The notes beneath the pieces are model-generated. The model saw only the letters and a program-made list of their open reading frames with translations, searched no databases and had not been told where the DNA came from. The position numbers were made by a program, and so were the translations under genes. Positions 18,407-24,666 of a stretch of DNA of 44,405 nucleotides are shown here, piece after piece. This DNA comes from an archaeon (GTDB lineage Archaea; Iainarchaeota; Iainarchaeia; Iainarchaeales; JAAZKV01), in contig JAVHOV010000016.1 of the NCBI GenBank assembly GCA_036170245.1, positions 1 to 44,405 on the forward strand. The letters are read 5' to 3'. Position 1 is the stretch's first letter. Every line of letters begins with the position of its first letter.

Positions 18407-19969
18407 TTAATTTTTGTTCTTAGCCAAAACGGGCTTTGACAAAAGTTTTTTTGCTTCTACTAAAATATTTTTTTTAGGATAAATTGCTTTTGACAATTGT
18501 TTCAAGAACTGAGTTTTCTTCTGTGAATTTTCAAGAGCAACTTCTAATACTTCAACAAGAGTTGAAACTGGAATTATTTTTACTTTAGCCAATTCTTCTT
18601 TGCCAACAACAATATCCCCAATATTACTTTTTGGAACAATTATTTCTTTGAAACCTGCTTTAATTGCAGCACTGACTTTAGCTGAAACTCCTCCCACAGG
18701 AAGAACTTCACCTCTTACAGAAAGAGAACCAGTCATTGCAACAATTTGCCTCACTGGCAACTCTTCTGCTGCTGAAATTACTGCAGTGGCAATTGAAACA
18801 CTAGCACTGTCCCCTTCTACACCTTCATAAGTCTGAAGGAATTGGATGTGAATATCTTTCAAAAATTCTTTTCCGCTAATTTTCTTAAAAATTACTGAAA
18901 CATTTTGCACAGCTTCTTTTGCAATTTCCCCTAATTTTCCAGTAGCAATAACTCTGCTTTCAGTTGTTGAACTTGAAGGAGTAACTGCGGCTTCAATCGG
19001 AATAATACTTCCAGCACTTCCGTCCCCGAAAACTGCGAGTCCATTAACTCTCCCAATTGTAACTCCATTGATTAAATAAACTTCATAATCTTTCTTTGTA
19101 TCAATCATTTTGTCAACGATTTGATTTTCAAGAGTTCTAGCAGACAACTTTGCTTCAAAAACATCTTGTCGCGTAACATATTTATGAGATTTTTCTTTTG
19201 CAATATCTCCAGCCCCTCTTACAAGTCCACCAAGGTCACGAAGCTTCAAAGTCAATTTACCTTTATGGTCACTTCTTCTTCTTGCTTCAAAAATAATTTC
19301 TTCAACAGCATCTCTAGCGAAGTGAGGAATTTTTCCATCCTTAATTACTTCCTGTGCAACAAACTGTGCAATCTTTTTTCTATTCTCATCATTGTCTTCC
19401 ATATCAACATTCATATAAACTTCGTAACCGTAACCTCTAATTCTGCTTCTTAATGCAGGGTGAACTTTTTCTAAATCCTGATAATTTCCTGCTGCAATTA
19501 AAACAAAGTCACAAGGAACTGGTTCTGTTCGAGTCATTGCCCCACTTGAGTTTTCGGACTGACCAGTAATAGAATATTTCTTTTCCTGCATTGCTGTCAA
19601 AAGTTCCTGCTGAGATTTGTGAGACAAAGTTGCAATTTCATCAATAAATAAAACTCCTCCACTAGCTCTATGAATCATTCCAGGTTCTACTCTTAAGTGA
19701 GCTGGAGTACCTAAGCCACCTGAATTGTGAACCAAAATATCTTCAACGAATAAGTTTCCTGTTTCGGTTGTAACATTATAAACGTACCCCTTATGTTGAC
19801 GCTTAGAGATTTTTGGAGAAAAGGTAGTAACTGATTTATTAAGTTTGAACGAAGGCTTTGAAGAAGCTTTGCGTAAAGAATTTTTTGGAGTAAGTTTTTC
19901 TTTAGAAGTTATTGAGTTAGTTTTCTTAGAACCCTTAACAATCACTGATTTAGTTTTCTTTAGAACCAT
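18407..19969 (-). CDS. lonB: C-intein fused to C-terminal half of LonB protease (Walker B to protease domain)
   Basis: [55 protein letters not shown] (Ser) and GGVSAK (Lys) dyad. Start is ATG 19969 or ATG 20026 (overlaps RT stop). Confidence 0.9.
19724..19969 (-). other. C-terminal half of split intein (IntC; blocks F and G)
   Basis: Ends in canonical His-Asn followed by Ser+1 at 19723-19721. Confidence 0.88.
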
Positions 19970-19989
19970 AACCAATACGTTTTGGAAAA

Positions 19990-20005
19990 CAATTAAATAC
20001 CTATT
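19990..20005 (-). promoter_or_regulatory. Candidate TATA-box promoter for the IntC-LonC gene
   Basis: AAATAGGTATTTAATT about 25-30 nt upstream of ATG 19969, spacing compatible with a leaderless archaeal transcript. Confidence 0.4.
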
Positions 20006-20025
20006 TGAGGAGAAACTAAAACTCA

Positions 20026-21324
20026 TTAAAAGCACAATTTTGTGAAAGAAAACTCTTTGATTGTTTGTTGTTTTAAGCGATAATTATTTGCGTGCTTAAA
20101 ATGCCCCAAATAAGAACTAAAAGAAGAACGAAAAGCTTTATCTTCAAAAGAACCTTTCTCAAAGAAAAAAATCTTGCTTTCTTGAAGCTCTTTACTTGCC
20201 ATCAAAAGTTTATTTTTGAAATTATGTAAAACTCTCTTTCTGACAAAAACACTCCAAGGCTTAATAATATAACCCAAAAAATCAATACCATTAGATAGGG
20301 GCAAAAGATTTACTTTATTTTTTAAATTCAAGAGCAAATGAGTTTCAACAAAATCCTTAATCTTCCAAAACCAATTTAACAATTCTTCTTTAGATTCTGA
20401 GAGCAAAATAAAATCATCAACGTATCTGACATAGTATTTGCATTTTAATTTTTTTTTTACAAAATTATCCAATTCATTCAAATAGACGTTTGCAAAGAAT
20501 TGGCTCGTGTGATTACCAATTGGAAGCCCCTTACCCTTCTCAACATTAATTAAGGATTTATAATTTGGAACTAGTCCACTAATCTCTTTTGTAGATTTTT
20601 GGATAAAATTTGTTGCAGGATCATGAAAAATAAGTTTTTTTGTAATCCAAAGCAAATCTTTTTTAAAATAATTATCAAAAAAACTAAAGCTATTTACTTT
20701 ATTTTCAATTATAAAAAACAAAATCTGCTTATCAATACTCATAAAGAAGTTACTTATATCTAGTTGTAGAAAATATGCTCTCTTTCTTCCAGAATTACCC
20801 CCAATTATTTTTCTTGTATTTCTTTGTAAATGTTTTACTGCTTTATGAGTCCCTTTATTTTTTCTACAAGCAAAACTATCTTTAGAAAAACTTGGTTCAA
20901 AAATAGTTTCAAGTGCGCTTACGATTATATGATGAACTATTCTATCTCTAAAATCTGCCGCAAAAATTTCTCTCGGCTTTGGTTTTAAGACAGTAAAACA
21001 AACAGAACGCCTCGGCTCATAAGTCTTATTATTTAAAGAATAATACAATTCTTGCAAATTTTGTTCAAGGTTTTCCTCAAACTTTAAAGCATTAACTGTA
21101 TTACGCTTTCTTTTTCTACAACTAATATAATTATTGTAAATATTTTGAAAGCTAAATAGAGCCGAGGGCGTTTCTTTTTCAAAACGAACACAACGAGCCT
21201 GGTTGTTGTTGTCGTTGTCCTTATTGTCGTTGTTGATGTTACCATTGTCGGTATTCAAGTTGTACGCGTTGTTCGGGTACGCAGGCATACTCGTTGTGTG
21301 CGAACCATCCATAGCTAAAACCAT
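20026..21324 (-). CDS. DGR reverse transcriptase (N-terminus includes translated TR)
   Basis: [48 protein letters not shown] (DGR SQ motif), [15 protein letters not shown]. Confidence 0.95.
21176..21296 (-). repeat. DGR template repeat (TR)
   Basis: 121 nt, 13 AAY codons; aligns with 22001-22118. Confidence 0.95.
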
Positions 21325-21490
21325 ACAGCCCTAGCAGTTTTTTTCACCACTTGGGTTGTTCGCATCAAAAAGAAACCTGCTATTAACGCTTCCTCGCCAA
21401 GGCAAAGAATTCTGAGCCGTTCTGTTACTATTTGCCTCACTAACTTTGTTAATGAGCATAAAAATTTTTGAAAACATATTTAACCACCTA

Positions 21491-21838
21491 TTAATATTTT
21501 TGACTATTTAACCACGCTTGAGACTGTTTAGCTAAATCAACTACTAAACCAGAAGAATACTCATAAGAAGAAAACTTTTTAAAAACACCAACTTCCCTAC
21601 ACAAACGAACAACTAGCTTCAATTCCTCTACTAGCGCAACCAACTCTTGCAAAGCATTCCTTTTTTCAGGCAAAGAATTCGCACGCATTATTTGACAAGC
21701 TATTCCTCTACTTTTATTCCTTAAATCAGTTCCAAGAACATATTTATCATATCTTGAAAAACCCTTTACTAACTTTTCAAAATAAACACACAAATCAAAA
21801 GCCTTCTTATAAATCGGCAAATAATCATACTGAGCCAT
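21491..21838 (-). CDS. avd: Accessory variability determinant (Avd-like four-helix bundle)
   Basis: YLPIYKKAFDL...F.RYDKY.LG.DLR...LAKQ..AW; RBS GTGGTG before ATG 21838; lies between target and TR. Confidence 0.85.
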   Translation of the reverse strand: MAQYDYLPIYKKAFDLCVYFEKLVKGFSRYDKYVLGTDLRNKSRGIACQIMRANSLPEKRNALQELVALVEELKLVVRLCREVGVFKKFSSYEYSSGLVVDLAKQSQAWLNSQKY

Positions 21839-21966
21839 AAAAAACACCACTTTAAAATTTTTTTCGTGCTCCCTCAAAGGGAGCACTTATTCTTCTCTCA
21901 CTTCACGCATAATTCCTTAACGACGAATAATCAAACACCCCAAAACACATTGGTTTTGGGTATCTC

Positions 21967-21985
21967 GCAAATGCTTTGCATTTGC
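21967..21985 (-). promoter_or_regulatory. DGR target-recognition hairpin downstream of VR
   Basis: GCAAATGC-ttt-GCATTTGC perfect 8-bp stem 11 nt past the target stop codon. Confidence 0.75.
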
Positions 21986-21996
21986 TCAATCACCAA

Positions 21997-23029
21997 CTAA
22001 TTTTCAAAACGAACACAACGAGCCTGGAAGACGCCGTAGTCCTTATCGCCGAAGCCGATGCCACCATAGCTGGTATCCAAGTAGTACGCGTAGTTCGGGT
22101 ACGCAGGCATACTCGTTGAACTCCAGTAATAATTACATCCAATAAACATAGAATTACAAGTCCCAGTCGAATAATCATAAATTGCATTAATTTCATTCAC
22201 AGTAGGCAACCTCCAACCACTACCAGGAAGACTCGGCGTATTATTATTACAATAATCTAAACTAGACTGCCAAGTAATATTAATACCTTTATCAGCTTTC
22301 TGCCACATCAAACCAGAATTCAAATCACTAACAGTACCATTAGAATTGTCTCTCCAAACGTGCTTATAATCTGCACCATAAATTTCCCCATCTTCACCAG
22401 TCCCAATACAACTTCTTGAACTTCCACTTACCTCATAACAAGTTGTTTGTCCACTTCCAAGACCATAATACATCGGAACAGGATCAGCGCAACTCGGGCA
22501 CTGACTAGCTAACAAAGTTGCGTTAACCACATAAGGAGAACAATCAAACATCACCTTAGCAGGATACTTTTCAGTCTTACTCAAACCATCCCGAGTAACA
22601 TACGTAACCGTCACATCCTGAGAAACAACTTTCCCCTCAACACAAACAGCACTCGTATCAACCCTAAAAAACTTATTACTACCCTGCGCCAAATCCTCAG
22701 AAAAAGAAACATTACTATCACCCACACTAACATTAGAAACAGTAATAACATCCCCACTATTATTCAACAAACGAACAACAAAATTACCATCACTAGGATC
22801 AACCAAAGACTCAGTAACACCAATAACCTGACTTTTCAAACCCAACTGATTACCAGAAGAAGAAACTTGCGAACTATTATCAATTTGAGTAATAATCAAA
22901 CCAACAACAATCAAACCAATAACAACAACAACCGCAATAATAACCAAATACTCAATAGTACCCTGCGCTCTAGAATAAGAAACTAATTTACTATTCTCTC
23001 TCTCTCTCTCTCTCTCTCTGCGAATTCAT
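21997..23029 (-). CDS. DGR target: class III signal peptide (pilin-like) protein with C-terminal DUF1566/Lcl C-type lectin-fold domain; frameshifted at (GA)12 in this assembly
   Basis: RAQGTIEYLVIIAVVVVIG upstream of the listed ORF start; GQTTCY, DN.NGTV.D..SGLMWQ, WRLPT..E, YWSST, ARCVR; ATG 23029 with RBS GGAGTGG. Confidence 0.88.
22001..22118 (-). repeat. DGR variable repeat (VR)
   Basis: 20 substitutions vs TR by manual alignment, 19 at TR adenines, plus one codon deletion; encodes the target's C-terminus. Confidence 0.95.
22995..23019 (-). repeat. (GA)12 dinucleotide microsatellite
   Basis: tctctc run directly after the 5' codons ATG AAT TCG of the target. Confidence 0.95.
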
Positions 23030-23059
23030 ATTTTCCACTCCTTGAAGTTTGACTAAACA

Positions 23060-23282
23060 TACCAGTAACAAAGAACCAAACTTATATATAAATATTCTAT
23101 AATTTGCTGTGAATGCTCCATCCTTACGATGTCTACCGGCAGAATAATTTTTGTTTATGTTGCCTGTAGTCAATATTCCTATAGAATCCAAAAGCCGTTC
23201 TAACTCTTTTAAATCTTGCAATTCTTTTTACTGACAATATTTCCTCTTTTGAGGGTTTATTGAAATTATTTGAAAAATACAT
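23060..23282 (-). pseudogene. Probable LAGLIDADG homing endonuclease remnant
   Basis: LKELERLLDSIGI.TT...RKDG.FTANYRIFI resembles the second half of a LAGLIDADG domain; truncated and out of frame with ATG 23282. Confidence 0.5.
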
Positions 23283-23286
23283 TCAA

Positions 23287-23443
23287 GCCACCTCCGCAAA
23301 AAATGAATTTTTTCATAGACGGCTCTGCTGCTTTTGGAGACATTAAACCCTTTAGCCAACAGGCGACCCCGCTAAACGCGGGGTAAAGGTTTAAGTCGAG
23401 AAAAGCAGAGTCTAAAGAAAAAATTCACCAAAGAGGAGGTGGC
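23287..23443. ncRNA. 157-nt long imperfect hairpin (structured RNA or MITE-like element)
   Basis: Nested pairs GCCACCTCC/GGAGGTGGC, TGAATTTTTTC/GAAAAAATTCA, TAGAC/GTCTA, CTGCTTTT/AAAAGCAG, TTAAACC/GGTTTAA, CCCCGC/GCGGGG. Confidence 0.6.
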
Positions 23444-23476
23444 AATGTTTTGAAAAATACAATACTAGAAAAAAGA

Positions 23477-23851
23477 TTAAGCAGTTGTTTGAGAAAGTTT
23501 GAACAAAGAATCTTTTTCAGAAACTTTTTCTGCATTCTTATCCCCAGTCTTTGTAATTATTTTGTGCTCAGGAGTAAAAGTAGCTTTCTTTTCACCAATA
23601 GAAAGTTCAACAACTTCCCCTTCATAAGGATGTCTGTTTAAAGAATAAATTCTTGAAGGAATTATTTTTTCATCTTTCATTCCAAGCACATAAACAATTT
23701 CTTTTTTAGGTAAAACCATTGCTTCATATCCTTTTTCGTGTTTCTCAACTAGATCAGGATATTTTTTTGACATTGTTGCCCAAAGTTTTCCATAAGAAAT
23801 TTCTTTCCAAACACCCTTTAGACAAACAACGAACGAATCTTCGTCAATTGA
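23477..23851 (-). other. N-terminal half of split intein (IntN, about 124 aa; blocks A and B)
   Basis: SIDEDSFVV block A after HDPLQS; YEGEVVEL......TFTPEHKI block B; ends at stop 23477. Confidence 0.88.
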
Positions 23852-24547
23852 CGATTGCAAGGGGTCGTGACGAACATCACCAAGTAAAGCACCAGCTCTA
23901 CTCCCTGTTGCTTCAAAGAAAGGAGCAATCTTTTTTCCTAAATTATTAACTAACAATTTTGGAGTAACGTTAGAATCCTTACTGCGCATCTGCCCGCCTA
24001 AAGCAACTCCAATTAATAAAAATCCACCAACAACAATTAATGCTGCATAAACAACATCAGGGTACCATTTCAATTGCCATAGTAAAGTTGAAAGAACCAT
24101 CCAGCCAATCGGAAGCAAAAGAGAAACAAGTCTCATTGAGTCATCCTGTTTTGCAGTTTCAAAGTGAGCTGCTTCAATAATTCTTTTTCCTTCCCCAGCT
24201 TTTACTACTCTAACTCGTGGATTATTTGGGTCCTCTGAATTAGGGTAAATCAAAATATCCTGCAACTGAGAAACTGGTAAAATTTCACTCATTGCTTGAG
24301 CTAATAAAGATTTTCCTGTCCCTGGAACACCCACAAGCAAAACATTTCTTTTCTGTGCAGCAGCTTTTCTAATAATTTCAACACTTTTCTCTTGACCAAT
24401 TACTTGCTCAATCAAAGAAGAAGGAACTGCAATTTCAGAAGTATTTGTAAAACTAGTTAAATCAAAATCTTTAACGTTTGCAACAACACCTTGAATGGGA
24501 GCATCAAGTTTTTTTACAGAATGAGCTTTTTTCTTTTTTGCACTCAT
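23477..24547 (-). CDS. lonB: N-terminal half of LonB protease fused to N-intein
   Basis: QVIGQE, Walker A GVPGTGKS, two TM helices, PKLLV.N, GALLGDVRHDPLQ. Confidence 0.92.
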   Translation of the reverse strand: MSAKKKKAHSVKKLDAPIQGVVANVKDFDLTSFTNTSEIAVPSSLIEQVIGQEKSVEIIRKAAAQKRNVLLVGVPGTGKSLLAQAMSEILPVSQLQDILIYPNSEDPNNPRVRVVKAGEGKRIIEAAHFETAKQDDSMRLVSLLLPIGWMVLSTLLWQLKWYPDVVYAALIVVGGFLLIGVALGGQMRSKDSNVTPKLLVNNLGKKIAPFFEATGSRAGALLGDVRHDPLQSSIDEDSFVVCLKGVWKEISYGKLWATMSKKYPDLVEKHEKGYEAMVLPKKEIVYVLGMKDEKIIPSRIYSLNRHPYEGEVVELSIGEKKATFTPEHKIITKTGDKNAEKVSEKDSLFKLSQTTA

Positions 24548-24666
24548 GCACATAGTCTGGTGGAGAAGGTTAAAAAAGGTATTTGGGAGAAAAAAATATG
24601 TTCAAAAGGCCAAAAAATAAAACTTAAACAAGTAAGTTTTAAAATAACAACGCCCCACTATAGTGG

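Follow-up and report, generated by a model that had tools for sequence, protein, structure and literature searches.

We analysed a GA repeat in the 5′ coding region of a surface-protein gene on the minus strand of a 44,405-nt stretch of DNA (contig JAVHOV010000016.1; hereafter the window, whose coordinates are used throughout). The gene is the target of a diversity-generating retroelement (DGR). The host is an Iainarchaeum-like DPANN archaeon, and the genes that neighbour the locus are archaeal (LonB, DUF373 and tRNase Z-like). We consider it probable that the tract, (GA)n, is a contingency switch that works by strand slippage and has two ON states and one OFF state, and that it sits in the cleaved leader of a prepilin-type surface protein diversified by the DGR. 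Between copies of the gene that are otherwise identical, the tract differs in length, so that random on/off flipping of the gene is the most likely explanation. An initial annotation of this DNA had proposed an ON/OFF switch. The frame-changing variation in length speaks for it, but the two candidate start codons, which lie in two different frames, raise the number of states to a probable three.

Two candidate start codons precede the repeat

The elements of the 5′ region are listed below in the direction of the gene.

23085..23092, minus strand: TATA-like box TTTATATA, starting 32 nt upstream of ATG1
23058..23060, minus strand: ATG1, candidate leaderless start; its own frame here reads MFSQTSRSGKYEFAERERERERIVN and then a stop
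23035..23041, minus strand: Shine-Dalgarno (SD)-like motif GGAGTGG, starting 12 nt upstream of ATG2
23027..23029, minus strand: ATG2, candidate SD-led start; its own frame here reads MNSQRERERERE and then two stops
23026..23028, minus strand: TGA closing the third frame, which is the body frame in this assembly
23023..23025, minus strand: ATT, in frame after the TGA (23028-23026), 9 nt after the SD motif
22995..23019, minus strand: (AG)12.5 tract, read as alternating Arg-Glu in every frame
22988..22993, minus strand: TAG TAA (TAG 22993-22991, TAA 22990-22988), a double stop for one wrong frame
22966..22994, minus strand: remaining leader, ..NSKLVSYSRA, ending at the predicted site for class III signal peptidase, RA/QG (the slash marks cleavage)
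21997..22965, minus strand: target body, with QGTIEYL and a hydrophobic helix, a middle domain, a C-terminal Lcl_C domain and the stop

The initial annotation had named a ribosome-binding site GGAGTGG, the ATG at 23029, the letters AAT TCG C between this ATG and the tract, the GA repeat and the TAG at 22993-22991, and each of them is found exactly there. Its claim that the gene body with its signal peptide runs in another frame without a start of its own is likewise borne out. This frame is closed by the TGA at 23028, and the first ATG, GTG or TTG within it is TTG 22947, which lies inside the hydrophobic helix. After the TGA, the body frame, which is offset by one base from that of ATG2, reads IRRERERERE NSKLVSYSRAQGTIEYLVII... 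(IRRERERERENSKLVSYSRAQGTIEYLVIIAVVVV...) and meets no stop for 342 codons, until the one at 21997. The annotated spacing of 82 nt (23029-22947) is correct, so that a gain of 2 nt or a loss of 4 nt restores the frame of ATG2. The deduction drawn from it, that (GA)13 or (GA)10 would restore the frame, holds for ATG 23029 but is incomplete, as the ATG at 23060 was overlooked. This codon, ATG1, lies in the remaining third frame, 31 nt upstream of ATG2. Between ATG1 and the first body codon (AAT 22995) there are 65 nt; with one unit fewer there are 63 nt, which is in frame, and (GA)11 is thus also an ON length. With the 12 units of this assembly, neither start codon is in frame with the body, in agreement with the OFF state that had been assigned to it.

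The tract is perfect (TRF: period 2, 12.5 copies, 100% matches). Matches to a 16-nt AG pattern fall within the tract only; 0 are expected by chance (100 shuffles). In the whole genome of 866,866 nt in 43 contigs, dinucleotide runs of at least 5 units number four (12, 5, 5 and 5 units), and this tract is the sole run that exceeds 5 units. A class III signal motif is present in 18 open reading frames (ORFs) of the genome. In 17 of them an ATG, GTG or TTG lies in frame, 4-37 codons upstream; the one exception is the DGR target. An alternative genetic code that reads through the TGA was considered and dropped, because the neighbouring genes and the 17 other pilin ORFs read normally under table 11.

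Both candidate starts have counterparts elsewhere in the genome. TATA-like motifs peak at -32 to -29 from first ATGs (34 of 611 ORFs) and SD-like motifs at -14 to -9 (64 of 611 ORFs). By these spacings, ATG1 is placed like a leaderless start and ATG2 like an SD-led one, each in a context that is normal for this genome. A paralogous pilin gene on contig C30 starts ATGTTTAAG.., 30 nt after the start of a TATA box of the same type, and shares ATGTTTA with ATG1. Given the TATA box at -32 and the homology to the start of this paralogue, ATG1 is probably leaderless. Since the C30 pilin start, which has no repeat, resembles ATG1, it also looks as if ATG1 were the ancestral start and the SD motif, ATG2, (GA)n and TAGTAA an insert into the leader.

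Tract length differs between otherwise identical sequences

Variation in tract length, on which the initial annotation had relied, is present: the tract spans 5-12 units over 13 loci, and two pairs of otherwise identical sequences differ by one unit. In both pairs the difference changes the frame, and both pairs consist of assembly-level sequences. The first pair is made up of the database proteins P0106 (403 aa, equal to locus L008) and P0032 (392 aa), which fall into the same 90% cluster and whose mature parts of 376 aa, with the variable region (VR) of the DGR, show 100% identity. Their leaders are in different frames. P0106 begins MFSQFFGSGGNGVRRERESRLN.. (..GVRRERESRLN..) and has (AG)7, and P0032 begins MEFAERESRLN.. 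and has (AG)6.

The second pair is the window itself and a 19,558-nt contig of run X3 (depth 10.6), which spans 22936-23700 with 763 letters against 765 in the window, 0 substitutions and 'gaps 2'. We infer that the X3 contig carries (GA)11, the length that joins ATG1 to the body (65-2 = 63 nt). For X1, X2 and X4, no listed contig piece bridges 22987-23027, which is masked as repeat, and runs X5-X20, which hold 0.06-0.13 of the sampled words, stand outside the comparison.

The genome is 86% complete. Within it NucS is present and MutS gave no match; NucS is not known to correct indel loops.

Related loci keep the module and differ in frame

DNA scans gave 80 loci. The window and 12 of these form the module set of 13 loci, which share a block composed of the TATA box, ATG1, 31 nt, ATG2 (ATGAATT(T)CGC) and (AG)n. 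The spacing of 31 nt between ATG1 and ATG2 is found in 13 of 13 loci, a TATA box (strict motif) at -31/-32 from ATG1 in 7 of 13, and TAGTAA after the tract in 10 of 13, with variants in L008, L025 and L032. Among 215 genomes of the phylum the block is present in 3, all of one genus, and scans of IMG/VR with two leader patterns gave 0 matches each. The loci have the following tract lengths and frames.

12 units: window (then an imperfect AA)
11 units: L016
8 units: L005, L014, L020, L073, L079
7 units: L008
6 units: L004
5 units: L001, L025, L032, L074 (L001 and L074 are the same sequence)
ATG2 in frame with the body (7 of 12 related loci): L001, L004, L014, L020, L025, L074, L079
ATG1 in frame with the body (1 of 12 related loci): L008
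Neither ATG in frame (4 of 12 related loci, and the window): L005, L016, L032, L073

The body is free of stops in all four OFF alleles in which it is visible, with 323 aa in the window, 354 aa in L005 and 291 aa in L016 (all three to a stop) and 251 aa in L073 (to the contig end). In the fifth, L032, only 69 aa precede the contig end, and a TAG immediately 5′ of the tract closes the frame. A comparison of homologue N-termini, which the initial annotation had recommended, also brought out three readings of the tract among database proteins (MNSQRE.., ..EFAERE.. and ..RRERE..).

Immediately before the TATA box, L004, L014, L025, L074 and L079 have a poly-G run of 8-12. Two contigs, those of L001 and L014, break off within this run, and the window has no poly-G owing to a deletion. 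The poly-G run could be a second unstable tract, one that acts on transcription.

The target carries a probable prepilin-type signal

The target protein matches Pfam Lcl_C (DUF1566) over residues 230-339 (E = 1.7e-19) and Pfam Class_IIIsignal over residues 18-40 at 22.3 bits (E = 1.2e-4), just under the cut-off of 23.7. We take SRA/QGTIEYL with the hydrophobic helix behind it to be an archaeal prepilin-type signal, and we place the cleavage site on the same assumption. The motif SRA/QGTIEYLVIIAVVVV is common to 17 other ORFs of the genome and to relatives that carry PF04021. The signal peptide of the initial annotation is most probably of the archaeal class III prepilin type, and the repeat lies within the part that is predicted to be cleaved off. 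Two homologues of Peptidase_A24 (prepilin peptidase) score above the cut-off, on contigs C13 and C10, beside pilin-like ORFs. The leader of the target is unusually long, with 21 aa from ATG2 (13 units) and 31 aa from ATG1 (11 units) at the nearest in-frame lengths. The protein is a putative adhesin, a label that derives entirely from its domains.

With the N-terminal 229 residues, 103 related proteins were found. In related pilin genes, the leader contains in-frame tandem repeats of the cleavage motif itself, namely (EHRAQST)n in 2-5 copies and (AQAPT)n (L022, L024, L026, L027, L029; L038). The prepilin leader seems to be a general repeat hot spot in this group.

The gene is the target of a DGR that varies within the population

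The DGR occupies the DNA downstream of the repeat and consists of the following parts.

22001..22118, minus strand: VR, the last 118 nt of the target
21491..21886, minus strand: Avd accessory gene (Pfam bAvd, E = 4e-6; NCBIfam DivGenRetAVD, E = 2e-8; both below cut-offs)
21176..21296, minus strand: template region (TR), 121 nt, overlapping the 5′ end of the reverse transcriptase (RT) ORF
20026..21324, minus strand: DGR RT (Pfam RVT_1, E = 3.7e-19), ORF intact, 432 aa

The status of the gene as a DGR target, claimed at the outset, is upheld by the RT and Avd genes that adjoin it and by the comparison of TR with VR, which differ by 20 mismatches in 118 aligned positions, 19 of them at TR adenines, plus one 3-nt gap. 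The remaining mismatch is at a TR guanine, and in an (AAC)3 stretch the VR lacks one of the AAC codons of the TR. P0002, the protein from a second assembly of the same population, is identical to the window protein at 313 of 316 residues. The differences are the initial residue (TTG read as Met) and two VR residues, both Y to N and both matching the TR. These VR differences, together with the adenine-biased mismatches between TR and VR, establish that the DGR is real and that its VR varies within the population; the DGR looks active. Short contigs at 22072-22125 (X2-X4, 3 other letters) were tried as VR variants and rejected, since their loose end TACCATTGTC matches the TR, which identifies them as TR sequence laid across the VR.

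The host genome has a second DGR on contig C30, with an RT at 937-2223 on the minus strand that is 77% identical to the first. Its target is of pilin type (MFKLNSSSKA/QGTVEYL..), with a plain ATG start and no GA tract. Inside the RT ORF of the window lies an in-frame A10 run (20449-20458, minus strand), which is probably unremarkable, as the genome contains 35 A/T runs of at least 9.

A probable three-state switch and its alternatives

The most economical reading of the locus is slipped-strand mispairing at a position where a repeat comes without cost. Transcription would probably start at or beside ATG1 (23060), which would make ATG1 usable in leaderless mode, and ATG2 (23029), in another frame and 31 nt downstream, would initiate behind the SD motif. 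The tract lies 3′ of both starts and 5′ of RA/QG; with a unit of 2 nt, each unit gained or lost in replication would shift the body to the next frame. A tract of 13 or 10 units would join the body to ATG2 and one of 11 units to ATG1. With the 12 units of this assembly, the body would fall into the frame closed by TGA, and the gene would be OFF or expressed at most as a trickle from the in-frame ATT. Two starts in two frames, and a third frame shut by the TGA of ATGA, would thus give three states. Translation in the wrong frame would stop at the TAG TAA right after the tract. The Arg-Glu repeats, which are encoded in any frame, would be removed by class III signal peptidase, and because the tract is within the removed leader, its length would leave the mature protein unaltered. 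The DGR would separately rewrite the C-terminal ligand-binding VR. That slippage is the cause, that both starts are used, that the leader is cleaved and that switching is reversible and beneficial is what we infer from the sequences.

The locus shows several features expected of a contingency locus, namely a perfect non-triplet repeat between the starts and the body, a length above chance, length polymorphism and intact OFF frames. It also has the multi-start feature known from lic1, with two starts in different frames upstream of the repeat and the third frame closed.

Several points weigh against a freely flipping switch. P0032 and P0106 come from two assemblies, in one of which the repeat length may be in error, and the 2-letter gap of the X3 contig is placed in the tract by inference from a gap row dropped at a masked repeat. 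Runs X1-X4, which hold 0.98-0.99 of the sampled words, all belong to a single groundwater study and may have yielded the window itself, so that they are not independent of it; they provide contigs rather than reads, at a depth of about 8-11. In the window, L005, L016 and L073 the ATT is in frame, so that OFF may be leaky. In the second assembly of the population, which is also from NCBI, the gene is likewise called from the internal TTG, and OFF may therefore be the stable majority state. The OFF loci L005, L016 and L073 (8, 11 and 8 units) have an extra T after ATGAAT, and this shared configuration could be long-lived instead of transient. Finally, no RT lies beside L005 and L016.

One rival, which we regard as unlikely, is neutral drift of the microsatellite in a gene that has become dispensable, with the tract left unrepaired and the out-of-frame copies being young pseudogenes. 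The 5 of 13 loci that are out of frame come near the one third expected without selection, L005 and L016 lack an adjoining RT, the gene is called from the internal TTG in both assemblies of the population, and the window cassette has other decay, its homing-endonuclease-like ORF (see below) being mostly deleted compared with L020 and L079. Decay of the gene itself is hard to reconcile with stop-free bodies in all four visible OFF alleles and with a VR that differs between two assemblies at TR-adenine positions, next to intact RT and Avd genes. Drift also fits poorly with a module that is kept across genomic contexts (31-nt start spacing, TAGTAA and a tract before the cleavage site), and no other simple sequence repeat is expanded in this genome.

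An artefact of sequencing or assembly, in which the real tract is fixed in frame and its 25 nt were miscounted by the assembler or in library PCR, appears less likely still. Dinucleotide repeats stutter in PCR libraries, the depth is only about 8-11, and the X3 contig gives a length that is in frame, 11 units. However, the contigs were built with 31-mers, which exceed the tract in length, the flanks of the tract are unique, the window and the X3 contig agree in every other letter of 763, the same internal start is called in two NCBI assemblies, and out-of-frame lengths recur in 4 other independent loci.

We find it least probable, and indeed improbable, that the 12-unit allele is expressed anyway, through the ATT at 23025-23023 behind the SD motif, ribosomal frameshifting or transcriptional slippage, and that the tract tunes the level of expression: the ATT is in frame 9 nt after the SD motif in the window, and L005, L016 and L073 share such an ATT before intact ORFs, but its frame merely follows from the conserved ATGAATT, initiation at ATT is weak where it has been tested, neither AGA nor GAG is an unusual codon in this genome of 33% GC, no single recoding site suits both the window and the extra-T loci, Rfam gave 0 matches over 22700-23500 (both strands, E up to 1), and the leader RNA has no structured element (-15.9 kcal/mol; mean of the shuffled sequences -19.35; z = +1.39). 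A three-state slippage switch is our preferred account of the tract.

The cassette lies in a split lonB gene

The DGR cassette, which comprises the target, Avd and the RT with its TR, lies at a single point between two halves of lonB (window 18407-24553, minus strand).

23477-24553, minus strand: LonB N-part ORF, which matches solved LonB up to ..GDVRHDPLQS and continues with 124 intein-like aa
18407-20035, minus strand: LonB C-part ORF, which begins with about 104 aa ending ..VHN and continues with SGGLGTPAH.., LonB from residue 179

The 124-aa extension of the N-part resembles the first half of Pfam Intein_splicing (E = 0.005, below cut-off) and the start of the C-part, of about 104 aa, resembles the second half (E = 0.013, below cut-off), with a junction at ..VHN/S. 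In L032, lonB is uninterrupted. The order LonB-N, (endonuclease-like ORF), target, Avd, RT and LonB-C recurs in L001, L020, L074 and L079, and in a genome of another genus (G141) an intein-N match and an RT lie on one contig. Of 38 family genomes, 9 have the intein-N part and 7 have the RT (own genome included). From these matches and this gene order, the element looks like a split intein that carries a DGR; we found no paper on such an arrangement.

In L020 (1631-2853) and L079 (4569-5845), an ORF of 53 aa and another of 354-372 aa lie between the LonB N-part and the target. The larger one has LAGLIDADG-like motifs by eye and matches Pfam LAGLIDADG_3 at E = 0.18 only. A phmmer search of PDB with it (L020, L079) returned nothing relevant, and its label as a homing endonuclease comes from the motifs seen by eye. 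At 23090-23300 the window retains the beginning of the small ORF and some 30 codons from the end of the large one (..ILTTGNINKNYSAGRHRKDGAFTANYRIF), most of which is deleted. In L005 (1607-2356), the ORF after the target-like gene begins UvrB-like (..LLGVTGSGKS) and continues, by eye, with unrelated sequence; it may be another intein.

Relation to known systems and implications

Phase variation driven by repeats is well established as a means of bet-hedging in host-associated bacteria. The opa genes of Neisseria carry CTCTT repeats inside the region that codes for the signal peptide. As predicted for our locus, the repeat falls within the segment removed from the protein, and a change in its length alters the frame and leaves the mature protein as it is. 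Unlike our locus, opa has a pentamer unit, a bacterial Sec signal, one start and no DGR. In lic1 of Haemophilus influenzae, (CAAT)n is combined with alternative ATGs in different frames. There too, a non-triplet repeat preceded by several starts in different frames results in more than two states of expression, whereas the unit is a tetramer, the product is a cytoplasmic enzyme that decorates lipopolysaccharide, the host is bacterial, and a pair of leaderless and SD-led starts is absent. On the side of the retroelement, the locus resembles Mtd of the Bordetella phage and archaeal AvpA in its adenine-specific TR/VR differences, its adjoining RT and Avd, and a VR at the C-terminal end of a ligand-binding domain; in contrast to the Mtd/AvpA type, the target here is probably a prepilin-type protein.

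The closest known parallel comes from Helicobacter pylori, which has CT repeats in the 5′ region of oipA and sabA (PMC10564699, PMC2715451). The outer-membrane protein genes oipA, sabA and hopZ share with our gene a CT/GA repeat in the 5′ coding or signal-sequence region of a surface adhesin; in H. pylori, changes in its length shift the frame and thereby switch expression. Our locus differs in belonging to an archaeon, in its probable class III prepilin signal, in having two starts in two frames and in being a DGR target as well. In H. pylori the switching has been demonstrated, whereas here it is proposed from sequences.

For archaea, the searches on phase variation gave genome surveys and reviews, including PMC3315296. 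A 2025 review (PMC11868660) names the spread of repeat phase variation over archaeal phylogenies as future work, and a 2025 preprint says that contingency loci have been described in archaea. In the literature on DGRs together with phase variation, DPANN, pilin or class III signal peptide, we found no repeat ON/OFF switch on a DGR target. The DGR papers that we checked by term contained no phase variation, frameshift or pilin, and a paper on archaeal type IV filaments contained no DGR.

Tentatively, and with more doubt than confidence, we suggest a wider picture. Cell lineages of DPANN archaea may hide, show or re-draw one and the same prepilin-type adhesin, through leaderless, SD-led and OFF states combined with a tip rewritten by the DGR. 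The whole unit of switch, target, Avd and RT may travel in a split, endonuclease-bearing lonB intein, which would give the DGR a homing route. If so, this would be the first worked case of repeat phase variation in an archaeon and the first ON/OFF layer on a DGR target.

There is a practical warning for annotation, since gene callers start this gene inside the membrane helix (P0002, P0105, P0034, P0043). The intein context is also relevant to the question of how DGRs spread from one genome to another. If the switch is real, ultra-small archaea use repeat phase variation on a protein that probably contacts partners or surfaces, and two independent random generators, the GA switch and DGR hypermutation, would act on one gene.

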